A stretch of 52,185 nt of DNA. Source: a virus. Made by a program: the position numbers and the translations under genes. Below, in pieces: positions 23,359 to 47,797 of this stretch. The stretch's first letter is position 1. Each line of letters opens with the position of its first letter. The stretch is taken from the IMG/VR virus record IMGVR_UViG_3300045996_002710, positions 1-52,185 of that record; one strand, written 5' to 3'. The notes beneath the pieces were generated by a model, which worked only from the letters and a program-made list of their open reading frames with translations, was not told the DNA's origin and ran no database searches.

Positions 23359-23628
23359 TCAGGCGGTGACCCAGTCCTCGGCGAGGATGTCGGTCTGCGA
23401 GGCGACCCACGGCACGTACTCGCCGTCGACGGTCCGCATCGCCAGATAGGGGCGGATCACGATGGTGTCGCCCTCGTTGACGTGGAAGGCCTTGGCCGAG
23501 TTCGCGTTGGCCGGCACGCCCTGCGGGTAGCCCGGCTGCAGCGCGATCCACATGCCCTTGCCGTTCCAGCCGTCGCGGGCTGCGCGGCCGCCAGCCTTCA
23601 ACGCGTTCAGAACTGCTCCGAAATCCAC
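23359..23628 (-). CDS. DUF2829 / Tad2-like protein (anti-Thoeris gcADPR-sponge family)
   Basis: FGAVLNALKAGGRAARDGWNGKGMWI ... PYLAMRTVDGEYVPWVASQTDILAEDW matches the DUF2829 hallmark pattern. GTG preceded by GAAGGAG. Confidence 0.75.
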   Translation of the reverse strand: MDFGAVLNALKAGGRAARDGWNGKGMWIALQPGYPQGVPANANSAKAFHVNEGDTIVIRPYLAMRTVDGEYVPWVASQTDILAEDWVTA

Positions 23629-32457: not shown

Positions 32458-32461
32458 CGGG

Positions 32462-32863
32462 TCAGCCGACCTTCGCGATGGTCGAGGCGGCGTTCCACTG
32501 CGAGGAGATGGCGACCGCGCCGGCGACACCACCGTTGATCGAGAAGTCGGGCAGGATCGTGCCCCAGAAGTACTTCACGACCGACAGCAGGTTCGGGTAC
32601 AGGTAGAACTTCCGTGCGAGCCCGTCCGTCGCCGCGGTGTACGTCTGGGCGGTGGAGTCGTCGTGGAACCCGTCGAAGTTGCCCGAGGCGTCGGCCAGGC
32701 CGGCGACATAGACCTTGTTGCTGTCGCCCATCGCGCTGACGTCGATCTTCTCGACCGTGAAGTTGATGGACCAGCTGGCGAGGTACGGCACCGGCTCGGC
32801 GACGGCGGTGTCGCTGGCGATGCCGAGGTAGACCCGGCCGTTGCGCCCGTGGTAGCGACCCAT
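32462..32863 (-). CDS. Major tail (tube) protein candidate (133 aa)
   Basis: GRVYLG...WSINFTVEKIDVSAMGD...GLADASGNFDGFHDD pattern typical of siphovirus tube proteins. Confidence 0.6.
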   Translation of the reverse strand: MGRYHGRNGRVYLGIASDTAVAEPVPYLASWSINFTVEKIDVSAMGDSNKVYVAGLADASGNFDGFHDDSTAQTYTAATDGLARKFYLYPNLLSVVKYFWGTILPDFSINGGVAGAVAISSQWNAASTIAKVG

Positions 32864-32867
32864 GCGG

Positions 32868-33893
32868 CTACTCCTTCTCCATGAGCCGCATCAGCGCGGC
32901 GGCGTTGTTGTCGAACGTGCGGTCTTGCACTGCCGTGCGCGCCGCGAGGGCGAGTTCGGCACGCTGGTCGGGGTGGTCGAGGTAGTAGCGGAGCAGCGCG
33001 GACGCTTCCTCCGGCGACCCGAAGCGGGGCAGCATGTGCAGGACCTCGTCGCCCTCGCCGCGCGGGTCCCGCAAGAAAAACGCGCCGCACGCCGCGAGCT
33101 CAAGCTCCCGCGGGCCCATCGACCAGCCGGCCGACAGCTCGGGACGGTTCGCCTCGCGCCGGTAGAGGTTCATGCACACCGCGGTGGAGCGGTAGATGGC
33201 GGCGGCGTCCTCGTTGTCGAGGCACTCCTCAACGTCGCCGGGGACGTACTTCCGCAGCGGCGAATCCTCGGCGAGGCGCTGCCAGTTGCCGGCGAGGAGC
33301 ACGTCGATGCCGTCGAGGTTCATCTGCTCGAGGAAGTGGATCCGCGACTCGTAGCCGGTGCCGACGAAGCTGAAGTCGCAGGCCAGCATCGGGTCGGCCG
33401 GACCTGGGTGGTGGATCGACGGCCGGTACGCCTTCGGCATGTAGACCGTGCGCGTGAGCGCCCGCAGCGCGGCGAGGTTCGTCGGGTCGTCGGCCAGCAC
33501 CAGGTCGACGTGCGGCGCCAGCTTCAGGTGCCGATCGTGCTCGTACGGCTCCTCGGTGCACAGCAGCACGACCTTCGTACCGTCGCGGCGCGCCTGCTCG
33601 AGCACGTCGGTGTCGGTAAAGAACCCGCTGACGATGAACAGGACGTCCGGCCGGATCTTCCACAGCGCCGCGGCCAGCCGGTCGACGGCGAGGTGGGTCG
33701 CCTGCTCGCCGGTAAGGGCCTTCCGGAACGTGTCGGGTCCGGCCTGCAGCAGGACGTTGTCGTAGAAGGTGAGCGCGTCGCCGAGCGGGAACGGTGCGAC
33801 CTTCTCACCGGCGGCGCGGAGCGCCTCGAGCCAGCCGGCGTACGTGTCGTGCACGCTGAACGCGGGCCCGGGATGGACAGCGAGCCACCTCAC
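32868..33893 (-). CDS. CgeB-type / GT1-like glycosyltransferase (341 aa) embedded in the neck module
   Basis: Trimmed to the GTG at 33893 (GTGA overlap). C-terminal RELELAACGAFFLRD...FGSPEEASALLRYYLDHPDQRAELALAARTAV resembles the Glyco_trans_1_2 (CgeB) family. Confidence 0.7.
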   Translation of the reverse strand: MRWLAVHPGPAFSVHDTYAGWLEALRAAGEKVAPFPLGDALTFYDNVLLQAGPDTFRKALTGEQATHLAVDRLAAALWKIRPDVLFIVSGFFTDTDVLEQARRDGTKVVLLCTEEPYEHDRHLKLAPHVDLVLADDPTNLAALRALTRTVYMPKAYRPSIHHPGPADPMLACDFSFVGTGYESRIHFLEQMNLDGIDVLLAGNWQRLAEDSPLRKYVPGDVEECLDNEDAAAIYRSTAVCMNLYRREANRPELSAGWSMGPRELELAACGAFFLRDPRGEGDEVLHMLPRFGSPEEASALLRYYLDHPDQRAELALAARTAVQDRTFDNNAAALMRLMEKE

Positions 33894-34312
33894 AGGAGCA
33901 CCTCCACGGGGAACTCGGCGCCGAGGTATCGGGTGGCGCCGTACGTGTAGGGGCCGGGGTTGCGGGGTTGGCCGAGGCGGGTGGAGTCGACGAGCCCGCC
34001 GAGGGTCGGGTCGGCGTTGACCGCGGCGACGAGCGATGAGGCGCCGGTCGGGGCGAGGAACGGTGTGAGGCGTGACCATGCGGCGCGGTTGTCGCCCCAC
34101 TGGACGAAGACGTTGACGATGAGGTCGAGGTCGGTGACGTCGCCCATGGCCACGTCGTAGTCGGCGATGCCACCTTCTCCCTCGCCGAGGGATACGACGA
34201 TCGCCGGGACCGTGCCGAGGTCGCCGGGCGGGAACGCGTGCCGTTTCGCCAGACCGTCGACGTCGACGAACCGGGCGGCGAGGGCTTCCATGACGTCGAG
34301 GAAGTCGGTCAT
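33890..34312 (-). CDS. Neck protein (head-closure/tail-terminator class, 140 aa)
   Basis: ATGA-coupled directly after the head-tail adaptor. Confidence 0.55.
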   Translation of the reverse strand: MTDFLDVMEALAARFVDVDGLAKRHAFPPGDLGTVPAIVVSLGEGEGGIADYDVAMGDVTDLDLIVNVFVQWGDNRAAWSRLTPFLAPTGASSLVAAVNADPTLGGLVDSTRLGQPRNPGPYTYGATRYLGAEFPVEVLL

Positions 34313-35202
34313 GCGACGAGCACCGCGTCACGCCGGTACGGCTTGAGAAACTTCAGCGCCCGGGCGTTCTCGCCGACCTGAACGGTGAACTCGCCCTCGC
34401 CGGCGACGCCGAACGGGCTGTCCTTGAGCCGGAACGTGTCGGCGGCGATGATCCGGGCAGCGGTCCGGATGGCCGGCGGGACCTTCGGCCAGCCCCACAC
34501 GCCGGTGATCTGGACGGTGTCGAGGCGTCCCTGCGTACCGGTCGGGAAGGTGCCGGTGGTGAGGACGAGCTCGTCGTACGGGCGCCGCTCGGGCGCCGCG
34601 CCCGGGTTGTAGGGCAGGAGCCGGTAGCCGCCGCTGAGGGTGGTGGCGAACGTCCCGTCGCCGGCGGTGTCCGTCTTGACGGCGGACGCCGACACGAGGT
34701 CGCAGAACGCGGGCAGCCGCACCGTGGTGTAGCAGTCGGCCGGCTCGAACGTCCGCGCCTCTGAGAGGCCACGCCAGAACACCCGGTCGCAGTGCGTCTC
34801 GATCCACCGTGACGCGGCGAAGCATGCGGCGTGCAGCTCGTCGTCGTCCTCGGTGGAGTCGATCGACAGCCGCGACTTCAGGGTGGACACGGGGCAGTAC
34901 AGGTGCCCGAGCTGGGTCTCCTGGACGTCCCAGGTGCCGACCTCGGTGTCGACCGCGGTGCCGGTACCGACCCATTCGTAGGTCCAGGTGCCGTCCTCGC
35001 TGCAGGCGATGTCCTTGCGGTAGACGCCCGTTCCGGTGCGGGTGATCTCCGCCGCGGCGTACGTGTAGGTCGTTTCCGCGCCGAGCGGGTCGGTGATGAT
35101 CAGCGACACTGTCGTCGGGTCGGTTGCTGTGCCGCTGACCGTGAAGGTGTTCGAGACCGTCGCCAGTTCGGACGCCGAGGAGAAGAACACGCTGGCGCTC
35201 AC
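34309..35202 (-). CDS. Head-tail adaptor (gp6-like) with an N-terminal Ig-like domain (297 aa)
   Basis: Trimmed to the GTG at 35202 (GGAGGTG upstream, GTGA overlap). LKSRLSIDSTEDDDELHAACFAASRWIETHCDRVF matches the gp6-like connector motif. Confidence 0.75.
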   Translation of the reverse strand: MSASVFFSSASELATVSNTFTVSGTATDPTTVSLIITDPLGAETTYTYAAAEITRTGTGVYRKDIACSEDGTWTYEWVGTGTAVDTEVGTWDVQETQLGHLYCPVSTLKSRLSIDSTEDDDELHAACFAASRWIETHCDRVFWRGLSEARTFEPADCYTTVRLPAFCDLVSASAVKTDTAGDGTFATTLSGGYRLLPYNPGAAPERRPYDELVLTTGTFPTGTQGRLDTVQITGVWGWPKVPPAIRTAARIIAADTFRLKDSPFGVAGEGEFTVQVGENARALKFLKPYRRDAVLVA

Positions 35203-36536
35203 GTGACACCTCCGCTCGATGTGGCACGGGCCGTGACGGCCGCGGTGGAGGTCCGACCTGCGGAAACCGCGGACGAGCTGTCGACGGCCTCGGTGACCGC
35301 AGCGGTGGACGTGGCCCGGACCGGGTCGGTGCCCGGTGTCACGACCGTCGCGGTTGCGGTCAGCACTGCTACGGCGGTGAGCGTGGCCTGTGCGGCAGCG
35401 GCGACAGCGGCGGCCGCCGAGACGCTCGCCGTGGTCGTGAGTGCTGCTGCAGCGTCGGAAGGGCTGAGAACGTCGGCGGTGGCGGTGATGGTCGCCGTGA
35501 CGGTTGCCGCCGCGGTCGTGGGCCGGTCCGCCGCAGCGGCTGCCGTGAGCGTGGCGGTGACGGTCTGAGCGGCGGTCGTGGGTCGGTCGACGGCACCTGC
35601 CGCGGCGATCGAGGCAGTTGCGGTCACAGTGCCGGCTGCGGCCCGGTCGACCGCGGCCGCCGCCGTGCGGGTCGCGGTCGCTGTCACTACGGCAGCTGCC
35701 GCGGCCGTGACTGCGGCGGCTGCGGTGACCGTCGCCGTGATGGTCCGCGCTGCAGCTGCGGCCCGGTCGACGCTGCCGGCGGCTGTGAGCGTGGCTGTTG
35801 TCGTCGCGGCGGCGTCCGCGCTGTGCGTGGTGCCGCCGCCAGAGCGGCCGACCGCCACGCTCGCGCCGAGACCGTAGCTCCACACCGGCACCGAGGACGA
35901 CGCCACCGACGTGTTCGTGAGCGACGTCTGGTTGGCGCCGTTGCCGGTGAGGTCGATCATCGACTGGCCGGTGGCGTGCTGGTCGAGGAGCCACAGGCCG
36001 TCGGGCGCCATGCCCAGTGCGGCGAGCAGCGTGTAGGGCAGCTGCTCCCACTCGGGATCGGACAGTGCCCGCTTCACGGCGCCGTTGAGGAGGATGTCGC
36101 CGTTGAAGAAGTCGGTGGTCTGCCAGCGGCCGATTTGGATCCGGCCGCCGGTCAGGTCTGTCGAGTCGCCGCCGGTGCCCGCGGCGGCGTCCGCGTGCGT
36201 CCACGTATTGGTGTCGAACACATACTTGTGGCCGCGGGGAACCGAGGTGCCGGATGCCCGGCTGACGCCCGCGAGGACCCAGTTGTCGGAGGTGGTGATT
36301 CCGACGGTGGTGTCCTTGTTGCTGGTGCCGATGATCAGTTGGATGGTGTTGGTGTTCGAGAACTGCAGCGCCAACTTGGAGCTGTTCGCCGATGTCTCGA
36401 TGCTCAACGGGGTGTGCCAGGCGCCGTTCGCGCCGCGGCGGCAGATCGTCCACAGGGAGTGCCCGGACGAGCCGATCCCGACGAGCCCGCCGATGCTGCC
36501 GGTGATGTAGTCAGCGCCGGCGAAGGTGCGGGCCAT
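35199..36536 (-). CDS. LamG/ConA-like jelly-roll domain protein with an approximately 220-aa Ala/Thr tandem-repeat C-terminus (445 aa)
   Basis: N-terminal W..AGVSRASG..HKYVFDTNTW..IGRW..FFNGDI..RALSDPEWEQL pattern. C-terminal repeats of the form VDRxxxAAxTVTATxTAAAA. Confidence 0.75.
   Translation of the reverse strand: MARTFAGADYITGSIGGLVGIGSSGHSLWTICRRGANGAWHTPLSIETSANSSKLALQFSNTNTIQLIIGTSNKDTTVGITTSDNWVLAGVSRASGTSVPRGHKYVFDTNTWTHADAAAGTGGDSTDLTGGRIQIGRWQTTDFFNGDILLNGAVKRALSDPEWEQLPYTLLAALGMAPDGLWLLDQHATGQSMIDLTGNGANQTSLTNTSVASSSVPVWSYGLGASVAVGRSGGGTTHSADAAATTTATLTAAGSVDRAAAAARTITATVTAAAAVTAAAAAVVTATATRTAAAAVDRAAAGTVTATASIAAAGAVDRPTTAAQTVTATLTAAAAADRPTTAAATVTATITATADVLSPSDAAAALTTTASVSAAAAVAAAAQATLTAVAVLTATATVVTPGTDPVRATSTAAVTEAVDSSSAVSAGRTSTAAVTARATSSGGVT
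35230..35860. repeat. Imperfect in-frame tandem repeats (GC-rich, Ala/Thr codons) inside 35199..36536
   Basis: Recurring gtcgaccg(g/a)(g/c)cc...acggcgacggtcaccgc-type units. They generate long shadow ORFs on both strands. Confidence 0.7.
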
Positions 36537-36539
36537 CGG

Positions 36540-36818
36540 CTACTGCCCTTCGATGACGGTCCTTCCGGCCCGCCACCAGCACACCAGGGCGAGCAGTGCC
36601 GCTTTCTGGTTGGCGGTCGCGGCCGTGCGGAAGGCGACGTTGAGAGCGGCGTTGAACGACGTCGCAGGCACCGACGAACCGGCGGATTCCGCCCAGTCGT
36701 CGACGTTGTCGACCGCGGTCCGCAGCACGCTCTTCACGAACGCGCACGGCTCCCCGACGACGGTGCGCATGAACGCCCGGGCGACCGCGTCCCTCTGCTG
36801 GGTTGTGAGTACCGCCAT
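36540..36818 (-). CDS. Hypothetical structural-module protein (92 aa)
   Basis: Minus-strand ORF between structural genes. Confidence 0.6.
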   Translation of the reverse strand: MAVLTTQQRDAVARAFMRTVVGEPCAFVKSVLRTAVDNVDDWAESAGSSVPATSFNAALNVAFRTAATANQKAALLALVCWWRAGRTVIEGQ

Positions 36819-36828
36819 GGCCCGCTCC

Positions 36829-37350
36829 CTACGTGGTCGTGTAGGTGAGAGCGGCCCCGACGAACTCGGCGTCGCCGGTTGCGGTGTCGCCGCCGGCGGC
36901 GCCCTGCCGGGCGATCCGGACGACGACGAAGTCCCCGGCGGCGACGCTGTCGGCGTTCGTCATCGTGATGCTCGCCTCGTCGAGGTGGCCGGCCGTGCCG
37001 GGCACGGTGACGGTGGCGGTGTTCGCGGTGGCGAAGACCTTCGCGTCGACGTCGGTGCTGTCGCCGTCGGTGACCGCGGCGATTGACCCGGCCCAGATGA
37101 CGTCGCCGGTCGTCGCTGACGCCATCTTGTACTGGACCTTCAGCACCGGAGCTGACGCGTAGTCGGCCGGCATCCGGAACGACCAGCTGGCCCATTCCTC
37201 GGTGGCCGCGTCGAACCACAGCTCCAGGAAGTACGGCGCCGGCGCGCTGCCGGACGACTTGCGGCGCTGCAGGGCCGGCGCGAGGTTCGTCGCCGAGCCG
37301 TCCGGCAGCACGGCGCCGCCGACGGGCAGGAGGATCGTCCCGGTGGCCAT
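36829..37350 (-). CDS. Hypothetical virion-module protein (173 aa; beta-rich, possible decoration protein)
   Basis: High-GC3 ORF in the head/neck module. No family recognised. Confidence 0.6.
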   Translation of the reverse strand: MATGTILLPVGGAVLPDGSATNLAPALQRRKSSGSAPAPYFLELWFDAATEEWASWSFRMPADYASAPVLKVQYKMASATTGDVIWAGSIAAVTDGDSTDVDAKVFATANTATVTVPGTAGHLDEASITMTNADSVAAGDFVVVRIARQGAAGGDTATGDAEFVGAALTYTTT

Positions 37351-37353
37351 GCG

Positions 37354-37746
37354 CTACGCCGCGATCGGCGTGAACGCGAACGTCAGCGACGTCAGGTTCA
37401 ACGTGTCACCGTTCGTGATCGACTTCGACGACGTCAGCGCGACGGAGAACAGGAAGTTCCCGGCGGAGATGTTGTCCCACACACTGATGTGCGAGATGGT
37501 CTCCGAGCCGGCCGACCAGCTGGTCCAGGACGGCAGCGTCGAGGTGATCGCCTTCGACCCTGCCGAGGCAGCCGACCACGTGAGCGCCTTGCGCGTCGTC
37601 TCGGCGGAGGCGTTCGATGTGCCGGCCGAGCCGGGGTCGCCGGTGTGGAGCTTTACGTTCGCTGACGACGGCGCGGTGAACGCCGTTCCGGCGAGCATGT
37701 CCAGCCACTTGTTGGCGAGGTTGACCGCGTGCAGGCCGACCGTCAT
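37354..37746 (-). CDS. Hypothetical virion-module protein (130 aa)
   Basis: VKLHTGDPGSAGTSNA...SHISVWD...GDTLNL pattern recurs in phage structural regions. Function unknown. Confidence 0.6.
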   Translation of the reverse strand: MTVGLHAVNLANKWLDMLAGTAFTAPSSANVKLHTGDPGSAGTSNASAETTRKALTWSAASAGSKAITSTLPSWTSWSAGSETISHISVWDNISAGNFLFSVALTSSKSITNGDTLNLTSLTFAFTPIAA

Positions 37747-37850
37747 GACTGCTGCTCCTCGGGCTCTTCGGTGTGCTCGGTTTCAGGCGGGTCGCCGGGG
37801 ATGACTTCCGCCGAGGCGGAGATCGTGAGTTCCCACCGCGTGTCGGGCAT
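37743..37850 (-). CDS. Small acidic protein (35 aa; below the ORF-track cutoff)
   Basis: My own translation: MPDTRWELTISASAEVIPGDPPETEHTEEPEEQQS. ATGA overlap with the next gene. Confidence 0.4.
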   Translation of the reverse strand: MPDTRWELTISASAEVIPGDPPETEHTEEPEEQQS

Positions 37851-37852
37851 GG

Positions 37853-38428
37853 TCACCACCGATCGGGTCTGCCGCGGGTTGATCCCGGGGCGAGGTTCCA
37901 CCGCCACGTCTTCTGCGGCAGGTGGTAGAAGCGGGCACCTTGTCGGTGCATGGCCAGCCACAGGCCCCAGTCCTCGCACGGGTCTCCGTGCTCGTCGGGG
38001 CGTGCCTGGAAGCCGCCGGCCTCGCGCACGAGCGCGGTTCGGGCGAGGACGGTGACGGGGATGAAGTTCCGCCGCTGCAGCAGGTCGCCGTCGAACGGGA
38101 TCCCGAAGCACCCGACCGGGTCGTCGCCGCCGGCCGTGTCGTAGCCCGGGTAGACGACGTCAGCGCCGTTGAGCCGCGCCGCCCGCGCGCACAGGCGCAG
38201 GTGGTCCGGGTACAGCTCGTCGTCGTCGTCGAGGAACGCGACCCATTCGGTGTCCACTGCCTCGAGGGCGCGGTTGCGGGTCGCGGCCGCGCCCTCTCGG
38301 TCGGCGTCGAGTTGCGCCAGGATTCGGTGCGGCTTGAGCGTCTGCGTCTGCGCGCTCTGCAGCGCCCGTGCGAACGGTCCGTCGCACCCGGTTCGCGGCT
38401 CGATCGTCGGGATGGCGACCGTGATCAC
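37853..38428 (-). CDS. GT2-family (GT-A fold) glycosyltransferase (191 aa)
   Basis: ITVAIPT N-terminus and the FLDDDDE DxD motif. GTGA overlap with the epimerase stop. Confidence 0.8.
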   Translation of the reverse strand: MITVAIPTIEPRTGCDGPFARALQSAQTQTLKPHRILAQLDADREGAAATRNRALEAVDTEWVAFLDDDDELYPDHLRLCARAARLNGADVVYPGYDTAGGDDPVGCFGIPFDGDLLQRRNFIPVTVLARTALVREAGGFQARPDEHGDPCEDWGLWLAMHRQGARFYHLPQKTWRWNLAPGSTRGRPDRW

Positions 38429-39300
38429 GGTGTGAGCGCCCGGGCGACGCCCTCCTCGAGGGACACCTGCGGCTTGTAGATCGCGTGGAAGCGGGCCGGG
38501 TCACCGACCCGGTACGCGACACCCGCGGGCTTGTCGGTGCGGAGCTCGATGTCGGGTGCGTAGCCAGCCTCGTCACAGAACAGCCCGACCAGCTCGGCCA
38601 TGGACGTGCCGACACCGGTGCACAGGTTGACCGGTTCCCGGACGTCCTGCTCGACGACGGCGAGGGCACCGTTGATGACGTCGGAGACGTGGATCCAGTC
38701 GCGGACCTGCGTCCCGTCGCCCCAGATGACGAACGGGTCCTCGCGGCGGCGGGCCCGGGCTGCGAACGCCCCGAACGGCCAGTTCTCGCCCTGCGTCTCG
38801 CCGTAGCCGCTGAACGGCCGGACGATGTGCGTCGGCAGGCCGGCCGCGTTGGCGTCGATCGCCATCCGCTCGCCGGTGAGCTTCAGCCAGCCGTAGCCGG
38901 CGTCAGGGTACTTGGGGTGCTCGAGGTCGATGTCCACCTCGGACAACGCACGCACGAACGGCAGCGTCTGGACTGCGGTCGGGTACGCCGCTGAGCTGCT
39001 GATGTACAGGACCCGCTTCTGCCCGGTCCGGTGTGCCCAGTCGAACATGCCCGCGTCGAGCGCGAGGTTGGTTGCGAGGTGCATCGGTTTGCCGTCGATC
39101 GCTGCCCGGTGGGGTTCAACGGCGGCGCAGTGCACGACGAGGTCGAACACCGTGCCGACGCAGAGCCGGTCGGCGAAGATCTGGCCGGCGTCGAGCCCGA
39201 GCCGGGTGTCGGAGCGCATCACCTGGTAGCCGCGGGCCTGCAGCTCGCGGGTGAAGTGGCTGCCGAGGAGCCCGGCGGCGCCGGTGACGAGGGCTCTCAC
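38425..39300 (-). CDS. NAD-dependent sugar-nucleotide epimerase/dehydratase (extended SDR, 291 aa)
   Basis: VTGAAGLLGS Rossmann motif, SSSAAY and catalytic YGWLK (YxxxK). Trimmed to the GTG at 39300 (GTGA overlap). Confidence 0.85.
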   Translation of the reverse strand: MRALVTGAAGLLGSHFTRELQARGYQVMRSDTRLGLDAGQIFADRLCVGTVFDLVVHCAAVEPHRAAIDGKPMHLATNLALDAGMFDWAHRTGQKRVLYISSSAAYPTAVQTLPFVRALSEVDIDLEHPKYPDAGYGWLKLTGERMAIDANAAGLPTHIVRPFSGYGETQGENWPFGAFAARARRREDPFVIWGDGTQVRDWIHVSDVINGALAVVEQDVREPVNLCTGVGTSMAELVGLFCDEAGYAPDIELRTDKPAGVAYRVGDPARFHAIYKPQVSLEEGVARALTP

Positions 39301-39848
39301 CTGCACCCCCAGATGCCGAACTCGTACTCGCCGCCGCCGGGGCGCATGTCGAGACCCGCGTACACGGCGACGGTGAACCCGGCCTCGCCGAGCATCTCTT
39401 CGACGTCCCTGCGGGACCACGCCCAGTAGTGCTCCGGGTTGTGGTCGCCCCAGCAGTCGACGGGTGTGGACAGGATCAGCGCCTGCGTCTTCGGCCGGAT
39501 CGACCGGAGCACGAGGTCGGGGTCGTCGACGTGCTCGAGCGTCTCGGTGCACACGAACAGGTCCACGTCGGGGATCTCGTGGATCGTCTGCTCGATCGGC
39601 CCGTGGAACGGGTAGCCGGGTGCGTAGTCGCCGAGGTACATGGTCGGCACGCCGAGCGCTTTGAGCGTCGCGCCGTCGCCGCAGGACAGGTCCGCGGCGG
39701 TGGAGACGCGCCCGACGAGGGCGTGTGCCAGCTGGACGGTGACCGCGATCCGGACCTTGTGGTCGTTCCAGCGGGTGTGGTCGTGCGGGCGGGCGTAGAT
39801 CTCGGCGAGTTTCGCGTCGTCGTACGGGCCGCGGAGCCGCTGCTTCAC
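39297..39848 (-). CDS. Class I SAM-dependent methyltransferase (183 aa)
   Basis: DLSCGDG motif I and CTETLEHV. Trimmed to the GTG at 39848 (GTGA overlap). Confidence 0.8.
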   Translation of the reverse strand: MKQRLRGPYDDAKLAEIYARPHDHTRWNDHKVRIAVTVQLAHALVGRVSTAADLSCGDGATLKALGVPTMYLGDYAPGYPFHGPIEQTIHEIPDVDLFVCTETLEHVDDPDLVLRSIRPKTQALILSTPVDCWGDHNPEHYWAWSRRDVEEMLGEAGFTVAVYAGLDMRPGGGEYEFGIWGCR

Positions 39849-40429
39849 GGCTTCACCGCCAGGAGCACCTGGAACGGGCCGACAGCCTCGTGCCTCTGGA
39901 CGGCGAATCCGCCCTGCCTGACCAGATCGGCGTAGCCGTCGAAATCGAACGCCCACGTGTGGAACTCGTACGCGTGACCCGGTCGTTCCTGCCACGGCGA
40001 GGAGCAGACGAGGACGTCAGCGTGCTCGGCGATGGTGCGGACGAACGCGTGCGGGTCGACGAGGTGCTCGAGCATCTCCGTGGCGACGGCGATGCTGCCC
40101 CATTCGAGGGTGTCGGTGAGGACGTCGCCGTGCCGGACGTCAACACCGCGGCCCTTCGCGGCCTCGATGTTCGCCGGTGCGAGGTCGTACCCCCAGCCGC
40201 GGATCCGCGGGCCGAGCAGCGACAGCAGCCCGCCGTCGCCGGCACCGAGGTCGACGAGCGTGTTGAGCCGCCGCGTGAACGCGGCCTGCCCGACGAGCTC
40301 GGCGGAGCGGATGAGCCGGGCCCGGTGCGCTTCCTGCTCGAGGTGCGGCGCGGTCTCCCGGCCGTTGTACCACTCGGCGGTCGTGAACTCGGGGATGGTG
40401 CCTTCGGGAAACAGCCGCCACTGGCTCAT
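39845..40429 (-). CDS. Class I SAM-dependent methyltransferase (194 aa)
   Basis: VDLGAGDG motif I and ATEMLEHL. ATGA overlap. Confidence 0.8.
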   Translation of the reverse strand: MSQWRLFPEGTIPEFTTAEWYNGRETAPHLEQEAHRARLIRSAELVGQAAFTRRLNTLVDLGAGDGGLLSLLGPRIRGWGYDLAPANIEAAKGRGVDVRHGDVLTDTLEWGSIAVATEMLEHLVDPHAFVRTIAEHADVLVCSSPWQERPGHAYEFHTWAFDFDGYADLVRQGGFAVQRHEAVGPFQVLLAVKP

Positions 40430-41136
40430 GCGGCACCTCGCAGTGCACGGACCTTGGCGATGTCCGCGGCGAGCTCATCGGTGAACGCGGCGTACGCCTG
40501 GCCGTCCCGCTCGTACATGCCGCCGTCGTTGACGCGCACGTACCCGGCGTCCATCGCCGCTTTGCCGGCGAACGGGTGCCGGTGTTCGACGACGACGTCC
40601 GGGAGGTAGCGGATGCAGTCGGCGCCGCGGCCGAGGTCGAGCCAGTAGTTGTCGACGAAGAGGTGGGTGAGGACGGGCGGCGCCATGTAGCCGAGCGCCT
40701 TGACGATGTCGGCGGTCATGGCGACCTGCGTCGGGATCCGCTCGCCCTGCAGCAGGTCGTTGCCGTAGACGATGCCGGTGCCGAGGCCGTGGAGGGCCTT
40801 GAGGTAGGCGGTGTCCCAGCCGACGGTCCGCGGGCAGTGGTCGTCGCCCATGAACCCGACCGCGAACGGTGCGTGGTCGTCGTCGACGAGCATCTCCGCC
40901 GCACCGTTGAGCGCTTCCACCATCGAAGTGCTTGGGCCCGTGCCGTAGCCGATGGCCTGGCCCGTCCGGTGCTCGGCGTCCACCGCAGTCTTGTATGCGG
41001 GCAATGCTGGGTCGCTGTTGTCCACGACGAACAGGAGCACCGTGTCGGCGGTGCACGTCGCCCGGAAGGCCTGCGCGAGCTCGGGCACGGCGGCCGGCCG
41101 CTCGCGCGTGGGGACGATGACGATGAGGTCAGCCAC
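40426..41136 (-). CDS. Glycosyltransferase (GT-A-like, 236 aa)
   Basis: LIVIVPTRERP N-terminus, VVDNSD and MGDDH acidic motifs. Trimmed to the GTG at 41136 (GTGGCTGA overlap). Confidence 0.7.
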   Translation of the reverse strand: MADLIVIVPTRERPAAVPELAQAFRATCTADTVLLFVVDNSDPALPAYKTAVDAEHRTGQAIGYGTGPSTSMVEALNGAAEMLVDDDHAPFAVGFMGDDHCPRTVGWDTAYLKALHGLGTGIVYGNDLLQGERIPTQVAMTADIVKALGYMAPPVLTHLFVDNYWLDLGRGADCIRYLPDVVVEHRHPFAGKAAMDAGYVRVNDGGMYERDGQAYAAFTDELAADIAKVRALRGAA

Positions 41137-41317
41137 GGCGACCACGCCGCTTCGGCTGCTCGGCCTCGACGCCCTCGGGTGCACGCGCGGTGAACCGTTC
41201 CGGCATGTCCTGGACGATCTGGTCGGCGGTGTCGTACTCGTCGCCGGCGTTCAGAGCGACACTCCGGCCGTTCCAGCCGACGAACCCGTAGTCGCCGGCG
41301 ACGTAGACCTTGCTCAT
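41129..41317 (-). CDS. Small hypothetical protein inside the glycosylation cassette (62 aa)
   Basis: ATGA overlap upstream. High GC3. Confidence 0.55.
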   Translation of the reverse strand: MSKVYVAGDYGFVGWNGRSVALNAGDEYDTADQIVQDMPERFTARAPEGVEAEQPKRRGRRG

Positions 41318-42060
41318 GCCGGCACTCCCGGGTGCGTCGGGGAGAGGTAGCCGCGCTGCGCGAGGTAACCGTCCATCGTCAGGGCGTGGTCTTTGATGTG
41401 CCCCAGCTGGACGGCGGTGTTCACGAACACGGGGTATCCGGCGGTGCCGGCGCGGAGGCAGAACGTGATGTCCTCGCCCATGATCCGGCCGTTGAAGTCG
41501 GTCTCCTGGAACCAGGGGAACGCCTTGGAGAAGCCGATCTCTCCGGGCCGGTGGGGGTTCGGGTAGTCACGGATTCGCTCGAGGACGGTGCGGTGGATGA
41601 GCAGGCACGCGGCGCCGGTCGCGAAGACCTGCATCATCGCGTCGGGCTGCCACTCGTCGTACCGGACGAACTGCACGTCGTCCTCGGTGCCGGTGAGGTC
41701 GTACAAGGTCGGGAAGTAGCGGCCGTTGTCGTTGCCGAAGCACAGCCCGCCGACGATCGGCGCCTTCTCCGGGTCCGCCTCGGCGAGGAGCCGCTCGAGC
41801 AGGTCGTAGCCGAACGTCATGTCGGTGTCGAGGAACAGCAACCACTCGGCCTGCGTGTCCTCGAGGAACTTCTTGACCAGCGCGTTGCGGGCGCCGGAGA
41901 CGTTGACGCCGGATCCCCAGCCGAGCGGGCCTCCACCCTCGCGGAGCCGGCGGGTCGTGAATTCGTCGTGCCGGTCCAGGTCGATCAGGCACTCCATGAA
42001 CCGCGACTTGACGTCGGTTCCACAGACATAGCCGATGACGACCTTGCCATTTCCTGACAC
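41314..42060 (-). CDS. GT2-family glycosyltransferase (248 aa)
   Basis: LLFLDTDM DxD motif and EDITFC. Trimmed to the GTG at 42060 (AAGGGA upstream) so that it does not run through the capsid terminator hairpin. Confidence 0.8.
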   Translation of the reverse strand: MSGNGKVVIGYVCGTDVKSRFMECLIDLDRHDEFTTRRLREGGGPLGWGSGVNVSGARNALVKKFLEDTQAEWLLFLDTDMTFGYDLLERLLAEADPEKAPIVGGLCFGNDNGRYFPTLYDLTGTEDDVQFVRYDEWQPDAMMQVFATGAACLLIHRTVLERIRDYPNPHRPGEIGFSKAFPWFQETDFNGRIMGEDITFCLRAGTAGYPVFVNTAVQLGHIKDHALTMDGYLAQRGYLSPTHPGVPA

Positions 42061-42085
42061 TGTGTCCCTTTCCCAGGTAGGCGAA

Positions 42086-42112
42086 AGCCCCGGCACCTGG
42101 GATGCCGGGGCT
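42086..42112 (-). terminator. Hairpin immediately downstream of the major capsid gene (attenuator/terminator)
   Basis: AGCCCCGGCA-7 nt-TGCCGGGGCT, a 10-bp stem. Confidence 0.6.
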
Positions 42113-42153
42113 CTCTTCCCGCCGGAGCTACCGGCGGGCGACGGTTGGTGCTG

Positions 42154-43626
42154 CTACGCCAGCGCGGTCGCCGCGGCGACCTGGTTCAGCTGGAGCAGGC
42201 GGAACGCGTCGACGTCGGTGACGTCGGCGCCGACGCGCCAGAACGCGAACCAGCCGGCCTGGCCGGTCGGACGGCCGTTGCCGGTCGACTTGACCATCGG
42301 CTCGTACATGATCGACATGCCGACGCGGTCGACGATGACGTACTGCTCGAAGTTGCCGGCGAGCAGGATGTTGCCGCCGGTGGTGACGACCGACGCCATG
42401 GTCGACGCCTCGTACTGCGGCTGGCCGAGCAGCTGCGACGGGACGCCCATGCCGAGGTTGGCCCAGAAGGCGGAGCCGCCGGACGTGTCCATCTGCCGGA
42501 TCAGGCTGTAGATGCGCTTGTTGGCGATCCACGAGGCCTTGGCGGCGTCGCGGGGCCGGAGCGCGTCCGCGACCCGGTAGACGTCGCCGGCGACGAACGC
42601 GTTGGTCGTCGCTGCGGTGACGATCGACGCGGTGACGGCCTGGACAGCGGCGACGATACCGCGGGGGATGCTCGCGCCGGTGTTGCCGGTGGCGAACGCC
42701 GCGCCTTCGAGGCGGGCCTTCGCGTCGGCGAGGAGGCCGCTCAGGGACGACGCGAAGCCGGAGTCGGCGAGCATCTCGTAGGAGCCGAATACCCACGCGG
42801 CTGCCTTGCGGGGCGTGATCGTCGGCTGGCCGAACGTCGGGGACTTGTCGGCGGCCTCGACGCCCTCACCGAGCCACTCGGCGGTGACGCCGGCGGAGGT
42901 GACGCCGTTCCAGTCGTCGGTCGCGATCTGCTTGACGGTCGCGACCTGACGGATAGGGTCGGCGATCCCCGAGTTGGTGAGGATGATCGTCGGGTCCAGC
43001 GTAAACGGCACCATATAGCCGCCGTTCGCGGCCGTCAGCGACATCGCGGCACGCAGCGCCTCGCCGACGTAGCGGGTCTCGACGAACTCGCGGAACTCCT
43101 CGTGGTACTGCTCGCTGCCGGTCAGCAGCATGTGCCGGGCGATCAGCGGCGACTGGACGCCCTCCTGCTCGATCAGCTGGGTGACCTGCTGGCGGGCGAC
43201 GTCCTTCATGTGCCGCGGGGCACGCTCGATCGCGGTCTTCGCCCGCTCGATGACCTCGTTCGGCTCGACCATGCCACGCTTGACCTGAATCAGGTCGGCG
43301 TACGGGTCGAGGTTCCGCTTGACCTCGGGACCGCGGTCGCCGAGGTACTTCGCCGGACGGGCACCGTCGCCGGACTCGACGTTCGCCGGGTCGAGCGCAC
43401 GGGAACGGACGGCGTCGAGGCGGGCCTGACGCTCGGCGAGCGGCTTGCGCTCGGTCTCGAGCTCGTCCCAGCGGGCGAGGAGGTCGTCGGTCTCGACGCC
43501 CCGGTCCTCGAAGATCTTCGACCGGGTGGCTTCGTCGCCCTCCGGGTCGGCCAGGCCGGCGAGCTCGTCCAGGCGGGCCCGGATCGCCTCCTGCTCCTTG
43601 ATGACTTCCTGCAGTCGGGTCTTCAT
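42154..43626 (-). CDS. HK97-fold major capsid protein with an N-terminal coiled-coil delta/scaffold domain (490 aa)
   Basis: ANGGYMVPFTLDPTII..., WNGVTSAGVTAEWLGEG and FAFWRVG motifs typical of the HK97 family. Follows the protease. Confidence 0.9.
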   Translation of the reverse strand: MKTRLQEVIKEQEAIRARLDELAGLADPEGDEATRSKIFEDRGVETDDLLARWDELETERKPLAERQARLDAVRSRALDPANVESGDGARPAKYLGDRGPEVKRNLDPYADLIQVKRGMVEPNEVIERAKTAIERAPRHMKDVARQQVTQLIEQEGVQSPLIARHMLLTGSEQYHEEFREFVETRYVGEALRAAMSLTAANGGYMVPFTLDPTIILTNSGIADPIRQVATVKQIATDDWNGVTSAGVTAEWLGEGVEAADKSPTFGQPTITPRKAAAWVFGSYEMLADSGFASSLSGLLADAKARLEGAAFATGNTGASIPRGIVAAVQAVTASIVTAATTNAFVAGDVYRVADALRPRDAAKASWIANKRIYSLIRQMDTSGGSAFWANLGMGVPSQLLGQPQYEASTMASVVTTGGNILLAGNFEQYVIVDRVGMSIMYEPMVKSTGNGRPTGQAGWFAFWRVGADVTDVDAFRLLQLNQVAAATALA

Positions 43627-46337: not shown

Positions 46338-47797
46338 CCAGGTACGGCGAGCACTCCGCGCGGATCGGCAGCGCGGGCCGCCTCGCCAGACGGCAGTGCT
46401 GGTGGGGCTTCCTCGCCCTCGATGATGTCGCCTTCGGCTGGCGTTTCGCCGGCGAGCGCCGGGTCGGTCTCCGGGACACCCTCGCCAGGCGGCTGCAGCT
46501 GGACGGACACCATGCCGGAGTGCTCGAGCAGTGTCATGTCCCCGTTGACGACCGCGTTGACGGCGGATTCGGCGGTGAACCCGGCGGTGATGAGGGTGTT
46601 GATGGTGGCCGCGTCGGTCTGCCGGATGACGGCGGCGTCCTTCATATCCTCGCGCAGGAAGGCGATGTCCCTGTCGTCGTACCAGAGCTCGCTGCCGTCG
46701 GGGACCTCGGTAATGCTGGCGAGGGCTGCGCACGCGGAACGCCACTGCGGTCGTGCCCAGTGGTCGCCGAACTTCCGCCGCGCGGACGCGTAGTTGCTGT
46801 ACGTAGCTGCCTGGAGGCCCTCAGACAGGCCGACAATGATCGGTGGGACGCCGCCGGCCGCGCACAGCCGGGTCTCGCCGGCGCCCTGCGTCGCCCGGAA
46901 GTCCAGTTGCCGCAGGTCGGCACCGGCCACAGTGACGTCCGCGCCGCCGGCCAGGTACATGGTCTTGTACGCCTGATCGGTGCCGCCGGTCGAATCGGCC
47001 ATGGCGCGGACGAACTTCTTGAACTGCTCCTCGCGGACGCTCTCTTTGAGGCTCACGACGAGCCGCGGTGAGGCGCCGTTCTTGAAGAACGCGCTCTTGT
47101 GGTCGGTGGCGGCCTGGTCGGCCTGCAGTTCCCTGATCACCGGTGTCAGCCAGCTCATGCCGCGGTACTGGCTCTCCGGGTCCGGGATCGGCGACCAGTG
47201 GCAAACCTCTTCAGGCAGATAGATCTTCGTCTCGCCGCGGCCGAGCCCACCTGGGGTGTACGCGTAGCCGAGGACGTCAACGTCGAACTCTTCGTCCGGG
47301 TCCCCGGAGAGCACGATCGACACCCAGTCGGGGCGGAGCCGGCGCAGCCGGTCACCCTCGTTGACGTCGTAGCTGTTGCCGGCGAAGCTGGCGTCCTGCT
47401 CCATGCGGGCGAGGAGTTCTCCGGTGGTGCCGTTCGGCCACGGCCGCTCCAGCAGCGACAGTTCGCCGTTCTCGCCGCCGAACAGGTCGCCCGGGCGGCC
47501 GTTGATGAGCCGCCGGAACTGGAACCGCGCCTCGGTGAACAGCATCAGCCTGGCGAGGACGATCGCGAAGATCGGACCGTTCGCCTTGTAGCCGGCCCGG
47601 ACGTAGCCGGCGAAGTTGTGCTCGATCTCCTCGACGGTGCGGCCGTGGCGGAGCGTGGAGCCGCCGCCGGTGTACGCGGCGTACGGGTTGTTCAGCTGCT
47701 GCAGGTACCAGTTGACGTCATAGCGGGAGATCCCGGTCGAGGGCTTCGCGCCATTCCCGCGGAACAGCGTCTGGAACAGCTTCGCCACGCGCCTCAA
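46334..47797 (-). CDS. Portal protein (HK97 family; alternative GTG start at 47788)
   Basis: Position after TerL. Contains ANGPIFAIV..RFQFRRL..SYDVNEGD..WLTPVIRE. Confidence 0.9.
   Translation of the reverse strand: MRRVAKLFQTLFRGNGAKPSTGISRYDVNWYLQQLNNPYAAYTGGGSTLRHGRTVEEIEHNFAGYVRAGYKANGPIFAIVLARLMLFTEARFQFRRLINGRPGDLFGGENGELSLLERPWPNGTTGELLARMEQDASFAGNSYDVNEGDRLRRLRPDWVSIVLSGDPDEEFDVDVLGYAYTPGGLGRGETKIYLPEEVCHWSPIPDPESQYRGMSWLTPVIRELQADQAATDHKSAFFKNGASPRLVVSLKESVREEQFKKFVRAMADSTGGTDQAYKTMYLAGGADVTVAGADLRQLDFRATQGAGETRLCAAGGVPPIIVGLSEGLQAATYSNYASARRKFGDHWARPQWRSACAALASITEVPDGSELWYDDRDIAFLREDMKDAAVIRQTDAATINTLITAGFTAESAVNAVVNGDMTLLEHSGMVSVQLQPPGEGVPETDPALAGETPAEGDIIEGEEAPPALPSGEAARAADPRGVLAVPG

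Follow-up and report, generated by a model that had tools for sequence, protein, structure and literature searches.

A seven-gene cassette directly after the major capsid gene of the phage studied here probably represents a virion-glycosylation module that is expressed together with the late structural genes, a reading to which we assign a probability of roughly 60%. The window, a stretch of 52,185 nucleotides, is the complete metagenome-derived genome of a temperate siphovirus of ~52 kb with a GC content of 70%. Comparisons with relatives indirectly favour glycosylation of the virion, and probably of the capsid, over conversion of the host envelope or modification of the phage DNA, both of which are less likely. 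An earlier note had proposed that the phage decorates its own virion with a methylated sugar. The late-operon position, the adjacency of the first glycosyltransferase gene to the capsid gene, and the covariation between the capsid tail and the downstream genes agree with this proposal, while virion modification itself is what we infer from them.

The capsid-adjacent cassette and its enzymes

All seven open reading frames were present at positions 37853 to 42060, on the minus strand and co-directional, after the major capsid gene (Table 1). As described previously, they encode 3 GT-A glycosyltransferases, here called GT1, GT2, and GT3, 2 class I methyltransferases (MT1 and MT2), an extended-SDR nucleotide-sugar enzyme, and a protein of 62 amino acids (orf62). 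The motifs FLDTDM, IVIVPTRERP, MGDDH, FLDDDDE, VDLGAGDG, DLSCGDG, TGAAGLLGS, and YGWLK were all seen in the translations, and the third-position GC content of 0.86 to 0.96 is typical of real genes in a 70% GC genome. ATGA or GTGA overlaps had been claimed for every junction; this was true for 5 of the 6 internal junctions, which overlap by 4 nucleotides, but the genes for orf62 and GT2 overlap by 8 nucleotides (GTGGCTGA) when the start codon given in the earlier note is used. The cassette had also been placed between the capsid and neck genes. It does follow directly upon the capsid gene in the late structural operon, but it does not abut the neck, being separated from the gene for the head-tail adaptor by 4 genes of the head-decoration type, which encode a Gp80-like head protein, p173, p92, and an Ala/Thr-rich protein of 445 amino acids.

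Table 1. Positions of the genes and other features discussed in the text
Feature	Position	Strand	Match or remark
Major capsid protein, HK97 fold, 490 aa	42154..43626	-	PF05065 1.4e-41
Two GC-rich hairpins, 93-nt capsid-GT1 spacer	~42118-42138 and ~42083-42115	-	Second followed by UUUC
GT1, GT-A glycosyltransferase, DTD motif	41314..42060	-	PF13632 28.5 bits (cut-off 27)
orf62, 62-aa protein, basic C-terminus	41129..41317	-	Usually after GT1
GT2, GT-A glycosyltransferase, DDH motif	40426..41136	-	PHROG glycosyltransferase family phrog_14945, 2e-47
MT1, class I SAM-dependent methyltransferase	39845..40429	-	Methyltransf_23 5.7e-10, 39.6 bits (cut-off 27)
MT2, probable second methyltransferase	39297..39848	-	Methyltransf_23 23.4 bits, below cut-off
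Extended-SDR nucleotide-sugar epimerase/reductase	38425..39300	-	PF01370 (Epimerase) 2.2e-35, 122.6 bits
GT3, GT2-family GT-A glycosyltransferase, DDDD motif	37853..38428	-	PF00535 2.1e-11, 44.5 bits; phrog_14775 1.5e-32
Gp80-like head protein or head-fibre protein, Ser/Thr-rich	37354..37746	-	PF23140 2.2e-27; phrog_240 'head protein' 2.7e-27
p173, p92, 445-aa protein	35199..37350	-	No family matches
Head-tail adaptor	34309..35202	-	phrog_442 8.6e-26; downstream boundary of variable region
Connector gene	33890-34312
GT-B-like glycosyltransferase	32868..33893	-	PF13524 5.4e-18; between connector and major tail protein genes
Major tail protein (133-aa tail tube) gene	32462-32863
Tyrosine integrase	19884-20723		Basis for temperate lifestyle

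RNA folding of the spacer between the capsid gene and GT1 yielded hairpins of -60.9 kcal/mol (z=-3.5), a stability reached by none of 200 shuffled sequences. The spacer was absent from the terminator-scan listing and its U-tract is weak; the hairpins probably act as a partial terminator or as an attenuator and keep the expression of the enzymes below that of the capsid protein.

The proposed GT-A, methyltransferase, and SDR folds were borne out by family matches and, for GT1 and GT2, by AlphaFold models and Foldseek searches. The AF2 model of GT1 (pLDDT 88) adopted a GT-A fold and matched GlfT2, STIV A197, ppGalNAc-T2, and LH3/COLGALT1 with E-values of about 1e-7. Its structural neighbours in Foldseek include the polypeptide GalNAc-transferases and the collagen glycosyltransferases, which glycosylate proteins directly, with TM-scores to protein-glycosylating GT-A enzymes of only ~0.55, that is, evidence at the level of the fold. 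The GT2 protein, which had no Pfam match, was modelled as a GT-A fold (pLDDT 95) with Foldseek matches to AvpGT, the fucosyltransferase WrtF, SpsA, and TarS, and it probably extends the glycan. GT3 was 35% to 40% identical to glycosyltransferases of Streptomyces and Arthrobacter phages.

MT1 is probably a sugar O-methyltransferase, and MT2 is its paralogue, with 28% identity over 151 amino acids (BLASTP, E=1e-10). The SDR enzyme matched MoeE5, GDP-mannose 3,5-epimerase, and GDP-fucose synthase in the PDB at about 1e-17, and the best curated model (NCBIfam Fcl, GDP-fucose synthase) scored 74 bits where the cut-off is 500; no specific reaction can be assigned to it by such comparisons. Since the cassette also contains no 4,6-dehydratase, the earlier suggestion of a possibly deoxygenated sugar was not retained. 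The orf62 protein had no matches in Pfam, PHROG, or NCBIfam, and its family was present in 17 of 30 complete related islands.

Conservation and exchange among relatives

The phage has many uncultured relatives, which come from Micromonosporaceae and allied families, either as prophages or as contigs. Among 70 unique loci that were sampled from the GT1 side and had 2.5 kb or more of sequence upstream, the capsid gene ended 89 to 2,273 nucleotides upstream of GT1 in 69. This adjacency holds even where capsid identity falls to 33%, and over a GC range of 53% to 70%. Judged by gene order, the conserved core of the system is GT1, the enzyme encoded beside the capsid gene. The genes after GT1 and GT2 constitute a hypervariable island, with 73 families in 30 islands. 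The GT2 family itself, which comprises 2,254 clusters, was present in 29 of these islands.

The capsid protein of the window extends beyond the conserved fold end (...AFRLLQL) by a tail of 10 residues, NQVAAATALA (positions ~42157 to 42186), in which a single Thr is the only hydroxyl residue. Tails of 10 to 11 residues with Thr, Ala, Ser, and Pro were found in the island-bearing clade, and L036 has a tail of the same length but no island. In relatives that lack GT1 (Eyre, L029, L038, L040, L041, L042, L045, and L046, all with 5 kb or more of sequence available downstream), the capsid protein ends 0 to 4 residues past the fold. The tail N-x-VAA(A/S)TAL(A/G) accompanied 23 of 23 islands of the GT2-MT-SDR type versus 0 of 14 other islands, with at least 3 independent switches on the capsid tree. 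These figures ignore phylogenetic non-independence and derive from neighbour-joining trees that carry no support values, together with our own GC3-based gene calls. The GT1 protein follows the core phylogeny (77% identity between L049 and the window, 56% between L049 and L012). Because GT1 physically separates the variable genes from the tail and yet tracks the core phylogeny, the covariation does not reflect one contiguous recombination block.

It was also noted that recognition of the tail by GT1 would predict covariation of the tail with GT1, but the tail covaries with the downstream genes.

The genes for p173, p92, and the 445-aa protein are located where the relatives L050 and L051 hold DUF4082 genes, and by this synteny they likely encode capsid decoration proteins. 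The C-terminal half of the 445-aa protein, ~200 residues, is Ala/Thr-rich and repetitive; its previous label as a LamG protein could not be confirmed in Pfam, PHROG, NCBIfam, or the PDB, none of which gave a match.

A fourth glycosyltransferase-like gene, missed in the earlier note, encodes a GT-B-like protein and immediately precedes the tail-tube gene. In 13 loci, representing 11 unique contigs, the GT-B gene was followed by the gene for the 133-aa tail tube; none of the 17 loci (14 unique) with the alternative tube type contained it. This linkage makes GT-B a candidate tail-tube glycosyltransferase.

Acceptors and alternative roles

The tail cannot be the universal acceptor, since GT1 is present in L023, where the tail contains neither Ser nor Thr, and in a distant clade, where the tail is absent. 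It is nevertheless unlikely that the virion is glycosylated mainly elsewhere, whether on the Gp80-like protein, which is a possible alternative acceptor, on the 445-aa protein, or on surface residues of the capsid body. The L023 tail is in line with such an acceptor, as is the distant clade, where the tailless capsid is only 33% identical and GT1 is directly followed by a Gp80-like gene with 61% to 62% identity to that of the window; the Thr/Ala-rich repeat of the 445-aa protein resembles actinobacterial O-glycosylated linkers. However, the Gp80-like and 445-aa genes are missing in many island-bearing relatives (in L009, L019, L020, and L026 the SDR gene is directly followed by the adaptor gene) and therefore do not encode a general acceptor, and either of them would leave the perfect covariation of tail and island unexplained.

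Modification of a host cell-envelope glycopolymer, either as lysogenic conversion against superinfection or as late masking of receptors that would keep progeny from attaching to lysed cells, is more doubtful still. It would suit a temperate phage with a tyrosine integrase and with prophage copies in Micromonospora genomes, and the structural neighbours of GT2 include two soluble GT-A glycosyltransferases of wall teichoic acid, TarS and, encoded by a prophage, TarP. However, the cassette is translationally coupled within the late operon, and a simple scan identified no internal sigma-70-like promoter between positions 32000 and 44000. Furthermore, the cassette enzymes have no membrane segments, partners of the GtrA/GtrB type or flippases are absent, and neither the GT1-capsid adjacency nor the island-tail covariation would be explained.

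Hypermodification of the phage DNA with sugars for restriction evasion is very improbable. Glycosylation of 5-hydroxymethylpyrimidines in DNA is known for phage enzymes of both the GT-A and the GT-B type, in some cases alongside sugar epimerases (bioRxiv 10.1101/2023.12.21.572611), and some relatives carry 2OG-Fe(II) or PhyH dioxygenases in their islands. However, such pathways need a thymidylate-synthase-like hydroxymethylase, or a C5-methyltransferase with a 5mYOX/TET enzyme, neither of which was found when the other proteins of the window were scanned against Pfam, and the genes are located in the head-morphogenesis block, away from the replication genes.

Related systems and a proposed mechanism

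A precedent exists in mycobacteriophages, whose structural operons contain O-methyltransferase and glycosyltransferase genes and whose capsid and tail-tube subunits bear glycans at their C-termini (PMC4351075, PMC11600133, PMC12619734, citing Freeman et al. 2023). The earlier note had such genes downstream of the capsid genes in characterised phages, which is not the arrangement described: those of Corndog are located between portal and protease (PMC4351075) and those of F1 phages near the 3' end of the genome (PMC11256854), unlike the cassette of the window. Che8, Corndog, and Myrna (Freeman et al. 2023, Cell Host Microbe; PMC11600133, PMC11256854, PMC12619734, PMC4351075) resemble the window in being siphoviruses of actinobacterial hosts with glycosyltransferases and an O-methyltransferase, in Corndog also inside the virion structural operon; the capsid and tail-tube C-termini are their targets, whereas the target in the window is proposed from the genes. 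The window adds a nucleotide-sugar SDR enzyme and 2 methyltransferases, and its lineage differs in having a hypervariable island that covaries with the capsid tail and a separate GT-B gene linked to one tail-tube type. No sequence similarity was detectable between the cassette enzymes and the validated ones of Che8, Corndog, and Myrna, for which virion glycosylation is proven; tblastn gave no mycobacteriophage matches for GT1, GT3, GT-B, or MT1, and phage matches to GT2 occurred only in Streptomyces, Arthrobacter, Actinoplanes, and Pelagibacter phage records.

The Actinoplanes phage phiAsp2 (NC_005885), whose host also belongs to the Micromonosporaceae, contains 3 translationally coupled genes, pas33 to pas35, for a glycosyltransferase, a fusion of a glycosyltransferase and an O-methyltransferase, and a glycosyltransferase. 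The N-terminal domain of the fusion is 40% identical to GT2 of the window. Unlike the capsid-adjacent cassette, these genes come after the tail genes, where the late structural genes end; a GT1 homologue was not found in the record, and no SDR was annotated in the 14.7-kb stretch examined. The large Arthrobacter phages Mimi and Racecar and Streptomyces phages of ~130 kb contain mutually adjacent homologues of GT3 and GT2 (35% to 41% identical). There, the pair is accompanied by a sugar nucleotidyltransferase and surrounded by genes for tRNAs and nucleic-acid metabolism, away from the capsid gene. The islands share their enzyme repertoire (GT-A, NDP-sugar 4,6-dehydratases/epimerases, C-/O-methyltransferases, LicD, TylF, and RGP-type mutase) and a similar swapping of modules between conserved flanks with bacterial O-antigen, capsule, and natural-product deoxysugar clusters. 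Unlike these clusters, they are located in a phage head-morphogenesis operon, encode soluble enzymes only, and lack a polyprenyl-phosphate transferase, flippase, or polymerase.

Under virion glycosylation, the soluble GT1 would act in the cytoplasm and place the first sugar of a glycan on one of the virion proteins. Its most likely acceptor would be the major capsid protein, and in the clade of the window the likely site would be on or near the C-terminal tail. GT2 and GT3 would extend the glycan, the SDR enzyme would convert a host nucleotide-sugar to the required donor, and MT1 and MT2 would methylate the sugar. The hairpins after the capsid gene would lower read-through, so that the enzymes would be produced at catalytic levels and not at those of structural proteins, and the tail tube may be glycosylated likewise by GT-B, whose gene lies just ahead of the tail-tube gene. 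As for the biological role, the antibody shielding suggested previously is an unlikely natural function in a soil actinobacterial phage. Exchange of the modules after GT1 and GT2 would give different glycan types across the relatives, and a gene set that is swapped in step with the capsid tail suggests particles coated with interchangeable glycans.

Phage type, gene content and the cassette enzymes

The window had a GC content of 70% over its 52,185 bp, and almost all of its genes were located on the minus strand. Since it contained a full phage gene set, including a tyrosine integrase, it is a temperate siphovirus. Its capsid protein shared only about 35% identity with the counterparts in Gordonia phage Eyre and cluster-I mycobacteriophages, and when 50,697 sequenced phage genomes were searched by megablast with the cassette, no match was obtained. 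The assemblies in which relatives were identified belonged to the Micromonosporaceae, Jiangellaceae, and Pseudonocardiaceae. A literature search on this lineage and on glycosylation in Micromonospora phages returned nothing specific.

Features of the window and of related loci
Feature	Location	Strand	Remarks
Large terminase	47950-49461		
Portal	46334-47797		
904-aa protein	43623-46337	-	Large N-terminal region, PG_binding_1 (peptidoglycan-binding), C-terminal S78 prohead protease
Major capsid protein	42154-43626		HK97 fold
GT1	41314-42060	-	GT-A glycosyltransferase
GT2	40426-41136	-	GT-A glycosyltransferase
445-aa protein	35199-36536	-	C-terminal ~200 residues Ala/Thr-rich, imperfect low-complexity repeats (…TATLTAAGSVDRAAAAARTITATVTAAAAV…)
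Head-tail adaptor	34309-35202		
Connector protein	33890-34312		
GT-B-like glycosyltransferase	32868-33893	-	PF13524; between connector and major tail protein genes
Major tail protein	32462-32863		133 aa
Tape-measure-like protein	29154-31301		
917-aa tail-region protein	25854-28607	-	phrog_5313, full length, 3e-147
Amidase	24271-25158		
Tyrosine integrase	19884-20723	+	
L051	JAUALB010000001.1, ~5.40-5.42 Mb		Prophage, chromosome of cultured Micromonospora sp. WMMA1363
Homing endonucleases, capsid-GT1 spacer	L049 8779-9090; L050 2036-2635; L051 9200-9730		

Some observations concern genes outside the cassette. The 904-aa protein was unusually long, and relatives encoded the protease separately, as a protein of about 240 to 616 aa. 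Residues 664 to 825 of the 917-aa protein matched a PHROG annotated as phosphodiesterase (2e-58); the protein is a possible enzyme of the tail with a polymer of the host surface as its target. A Tad2-like domain (PF11195, Thoeris anti-defence 2; 7.9e-26) was matched in a pooled scan, which reports a match without its protein, and we tentatively take it to belong to the small ORF at 23359-23628 (minus strand) next to the lysis genes, based on a family signature of the ...ALKAGGRAARDGWNGKGMWI... type. The 445-aa protein had no match in any library; its gene filled the slot occupied by DUF4082 proteins in relatives, and long spurious ORFs were present on the opposite strand.

Counted from the capsid side, the cassette (37853-42060) encodes GT1, the 62-aa protein Orf62, GT2, the methyltransferases MT1 and MT2, the nucleotide-sugar enzyme SDR and GT3. 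The earlier note had described an ATGA or GTGA overlap at every junction and a position between the capsid and neck genes. Five of the 6 internal junctions were 4-nt overlaps, while the sixth was an 8-nt overlap; the cassette did adjoin the capsid gene, but on its other side the genes for a Gp80-like head protein, 2 small unknown proteins and the 445-aa protein intervened before the neck genes. The glycosyltransferase and methyltransferase genes were co-located with structural genes, between those for the capsid and the adaptor, and translationally coupled. The 93-nt spacer between the capsid gene and GT1 was filled by 2 strong hairpins, and the 106-nt gap between GT3 and the gp80-like gene showed no significant structure (z=+0.37). 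A scan of positions 32000 to 44000 for the sigma-70 consensus gave no promoter, a negative result of little weight since actinobacterial promoters depart from this consensus.

The 7 reading frames were confirmed as real and have the folds previously proposed for them. Searches of the PDB with the sequences of GT1, GT2, MT1, the GT-B-like protein and the 445-aa protein yielded matches at chance level only, and structures were therefore predicted for GT1 and GT2, both of which adopted a GT-A fold. The GT1 sequence barely passed the threshold for PF13632. Its AlphaFold model, built from an alignment of 45 sequences, had a pLDDT of 88 and a pTM of 0.86, and residues D78 and D80 of the DTD motif were invariant across 45 homologs. 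The Foldseek neighbors of GT1 were the GT-A enzymes GlfT2, STIV A197, the polypeptide GalNAc-transferases and the collagen-modifying LH3/COLGALT1 (E~1e-7, TM~0.55). The GT2 protein matched PHROG glycosyltransferase families at 2e-47, and no Pfam domain was found either in GT2 or in 120 listed members of its family, which comprised 2,254 clusters. The GT2 model (pLDDT 95) was most similar to AvpGT, the fucosyltransferase WrtF, SpsA and TarS, and the motif D98-D99-H100 was invariant. With GT3, which scored above the cut-off for PF00535 and contained a DDDD motif, all 3 enzymes combine a Rossmann-like fold with a DxD-type motif for binding metal and nucleotide sugar, as is characteristic of GT-A glycosyltransferases.

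The MT1 protein matched Methyltransf_23 with 39.6 bits against a cut-off of 27 and contained the glycine-rich motif DLGAGDG, whereas MT2 (motif DLSCGDG) remained under the threshold with 23.4 bits but was paralogous to MT1 (E=1e-10), and both are assigned as putative class I SAM-dependent methyltransferases. A PF01370 match of 122.6 bits, the N-terminal dinucleotide motif TGAAGLLGS (TGxxGxxG) and a catalytic YxxxK in YGWLK place the SDR protein in the extended SDR class, with the epimerases, dehydratases and reductases of nucleotide sugars. It reached no specific NDP-sugar enzyme equivalog, GDP-L-fucose synthase (Fcl) included, in searches of NCBIfam and the PDB: the best NCBIfam model, GDPFucSynFcl, gave 74.4 bits where 500 are required, GalE gave 51.8 against 262, and the PDB matches, all near 1e-17, included epimerases as well as reductases and dehydratases. 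Because these searches gave no definite reaction, we do not endorse the previous idea of a deoxy sugar. The Orf62 protein had no library match, and its family recurred in 17 of 30 related islands.

Linkage of glycosyltransferase genes to capsid and tail-tube genes

To compare the cassette among relatives, we used 30 IMG/VR contigs retrieved with the capsid protein, 15 genomic loci and 3 contigs retrieved with GT1, in which genes were called with our own GC3-based script. The order capsid, GT1, (Orf62), GT2, a variable set of genes, adaptor, and connector was retained. A second sampling through GT1, which countered the bias of the capsid-based selection, yielded 188 IMG/VR contigs with a GT1 relative, in a lineage whose GT1 proteins form 727 clusters at 90% identity. 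Among unique loci whose upstream sequence reached 2.5 kb or more, 69 of 70 had the capsid gene ending 89 to 2,273 nt upstream of GT1, and the adjacency was kept where the capsid proteins were only 33% to 46% identical and the GC content was as low as 53%. Longer spacers carried insertions, which in L049, L050 and the WMMA1363 prophage (L051) were homing endonucleases of the Endonuclease_7 or HNH_3 families; the spacer in the window contained none. Such repeated insertion may make the capsid-GT1 junction a recombination hot spot. It was also noted that a distant relative (L099, 5348-8236) had the permuted order capsid, GT2, MT, SDR, and GT1, so that the capsid gene is not followed first by GT1 in every case.

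A GT-B-like gene upstream of the tail-tube gene had been overlooked in the earlier note. This gene was followed by the gene for a 133-aa tail-tube protein in all 13 loci with continuing sequence (11 unique contigs), and none of the 17 loci (14 unique) encoding an alternative tube protein of about 240 aa contained it. The strict linkage parallels that of GT1 to the capsid gene and suggests that the tail tube may be glycosylated. No homolog of the GT-B-like protein was found in the 50,697 phage genomes (tblastn, E<=1e-3), and a comparison of tail-tube C-termini across relatives revealed no covarying tail.

A variable gene island and the C-terminus of the capsid protein

The region from the end of GT1 to the start of the adaptor gene, here called the island, was complete in 30 loci, where it spanned 2.3 to 8.5 kb and contained 2 to 15 genes. 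The 214 island proteins were sorted into 73 families, 53 of which were singletons. The island type in the window (GT2, MT, MT, SDR, with or without GT3) was one variant among several. Other islands encoded Glyco_tranf_2_5 transferases, an RmlB-like 4,6-dehydratase, a GDP-mannose-dehydratase-like (GMD-like) SDR, an NDP-hexose C-methyltransferase (Methyltransf_13/14), O-methyltransferases of the TylF and Methyltransf_3 types, LicD, an RGP-type mutase, PhyH and 2OG dioxygenases, an FAD oxidoreductase and a polysaccharide deacetylase. The gene set of L050, with a GT1 protein 87% identical to that of the window, was the same as in the window. In L049, also a near relative (TerL 94%, GT-B 83%, GT3 80%, and GT1 77% identical), a C-methyltransferase and a GMD-like enzyme replaced GT2, both methyltransferases and the SDR. 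The island was wholly absent from several prophage relatives, including L036 in Micromonospora sp. RTGN7, L041, and L042. No prophage copy other than L051 was found in a cultured strain; in its island, an IS element with a DDE transposase (12430-13872) was located between the MT and SDR genes and may alter the expression of the genes downstream.

Capsid proteins of the island-bearing clade extended 10 to 11 residues past the conserved end of the fold (...AFRLLQL) in a tail rich in Thr, Ala, Ser, and Pro, whereas those of relatives without GT1 mostly ended within 0 to 4 residues. The tail N-x-VAA(A/S)TAL(A/G) was present in all 23 window-type islands with a readable capsid end and in none of 14 islands of other types, these being raw counts uncorrected for shared ancestry; tails beside the other types included NTTAAFTAKAS, HTTPGFTALG, NTTVAITALG, and HATATAIPLA. 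On a neighbor-joining tree of the capsid core, inferred without support values, the association was seen in at least 3 independent contrasts: L049 versus the window and L050, L012 versus L010 and L034, and L018 and L014 within a window-type clade. L049 and L012, though from different capsid clades, both combined a ...TVAITALG tail with an island containing the C-methyltransferase, the GMD-like enzyme and GT3. At the DNA level, what set L049 apart from the window and L050 was exactly the codons of the tail, with conserved flanks.

Since the tail is encoded only about 100 nt upstream of the island, hitch-hiking of the 3' end of the capsid gene was considered. The GT1 gene in between, however, tracked the core phylogeny (77% identity between L049 and the window, 79% between L012 and L010, but 56% between L049 and L012). 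A single contiguous recombination block therefore fails to explain the pattern, and hitch-hiking was rejected as its sole cause. Functional coupling between the tail and the island is the simpler reading. In the window, the C-terminal peptide ...LLQLNQVAAATALA has a single hydroxyl residue in the tail, the threonine T487, which is the predicted site of glycan attachment.

Tentatively, and with doubts that outweigh our confidence, we propose that the virions of this lineage come in glycan "serotypes", in which a conserved, capsid-adjacent initiating enzyme, GT1, would act with a recombining, O-antigen-like island of sugar-tailoring genes that co-evolves with the short acceptor tail, its exchange perhaps promoted by the homing endonucleases found in the capsid-GT1 spacer of relatives. 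If so, the particle surface would be under diversifying selection in soil from causes other than antibodies, for example defences by which the host senses capsids, adsorption to debris, or grazers.

Target of the cassette and relation to known virion glycosylation

Glycosylation of the virion is in our view the best explanation for the cassette, with a probability of roughly 0.6, and we hold it to be distinctly probable once acceptors elsewhere in the virion are included. The location between capsid and adaptor genes, the GT1-capsid linkage and the covariation of the tail lend indirect support to this part of the earlier reading, but the sequence does not specify the sugar chemistry that came with it. 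A serious alternative, which leaves the general mechanism unchanged, is that another virion protein is the acceptor. The tail in the window offers just one hydroxyl residue, that of L023, a relative with GT1, contained neither Ser nor Thr, L036 had a tail of equal length and no island, and a distant clade had GT1 but no tail, often with a well-conserved Gp80-like gene directly after GT1. For these reasons, the tail is the acceptor in one clade at best, and GT1 must recognize something more general.

Modification of the host envelope, by way of lysogenic conversion, would suit a temperate phage and the resemblance of the modeled GT2 to TarS and TarP. Yet it leaves the links to the capsid gene unexplained, and the genes are coupled within the late operon, where a simple scan shows no promoter-like site. 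Nor did any of the cassette enzymes or the GT-B-like protein contain a hydrophobic segment that could span a membrane (maximum 19-residue Kyte-Doolittle mean <=1.44). Serotype conversion of the Gtr type employs the flippase GtrA, the bactoprenol glucosyltransferase GtrB and the integral-membrane protein GtrC, and no such families were found in the cassette with Pfam and NCBIfam. Hypermodification of the phage DNA with sugars needs a thymidylate-synthase-type hydroxymethylase, or a C5-methyltransferase with a 5mYOX/TET enzyme (bioRxiv 10.1101/2023.12.21.572611), neither of which appeared in those proteins of the window that were scanned with Pfam.

Virion glycosylation as proposed here resembles the O-glycosylation of mycobacteriophage virions, the closest known system (Freeman et al. 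2023, via PMC11600133, PMC11256854, PMC12619734), in logic but not at the sequence level. That system places O-linked glycans on capsid and tail-tube subunits at their C-termini; for the present lineage, the covarying capsid tail gives indirect evidence only, and the tube C-termini show no such signal. Phage Corndog encodes an O-methyltransferase and 3 glycosyltransferases between its genes for portal and protease (PMC4351075), and the cassette likewise places such genes among those for virion structure. A tblastn search with GT1, GT3, the GT-B-like protein and MT1 against the 50,697 phage genomes gave no mycobacteriophage match at E<=1e-3, and the matches of GT2 were confined to records of Streptomyces, Arthrobacter, Actinoplanes, and Pelagibacter phages. 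Among the best 50 BFVD matches listed for GT1, several of them unnamed, there was no named mycobacteriophage protein, and the nearest viral structures were from uncultured Caudovirales. The glycosyltransferases here lack detectable sequence similarity to the validated enzymes of Che8, Corndog, or Myrna. The nearest analog in an isolate is pas33-35 of Actinoplanes phage phiAsp2, where a glycosyltransferase-O-methyltransferase fusion is 40% identical to GT2. In large Arthrobacter and Streptomyces phages, GT3-like and GT2-like genes are adjacent, beside a nucleotidyltransferase gene and in a non-structural context.

In the cited literature, experimentally documented glycosylation of phage virions is confined to a few mycobacteriophages, and antibody shielding, its known benefit, is irrelevant in soil. 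If borne out, our reading would extend virion glycosylation to uncultured phages of the Micromonosporaceae and related actinobacteria, by means of enzymes without detectable sequence similarity to those of the mycobacteriophages. The size of this uncultured lineage, its hypervariable island and a covarying tail with a concrete acceptor prediction add to the interest. The lineage offers a natural experiment in which the initiating enzyme is conserved, the tailoring modules can be swapped and a 10-residue tail on the capsid protein covaries; it is this combination that led to the acceptor-site prediction, which the WMMA1363 prophage in culture makes testable. The system may also provide a toolkit with which phage capsids could be made to display defined glycans of the methylated or deoxy kind. 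For the phages themselves, our results suggest that the type of glycan is under diversifying selection.
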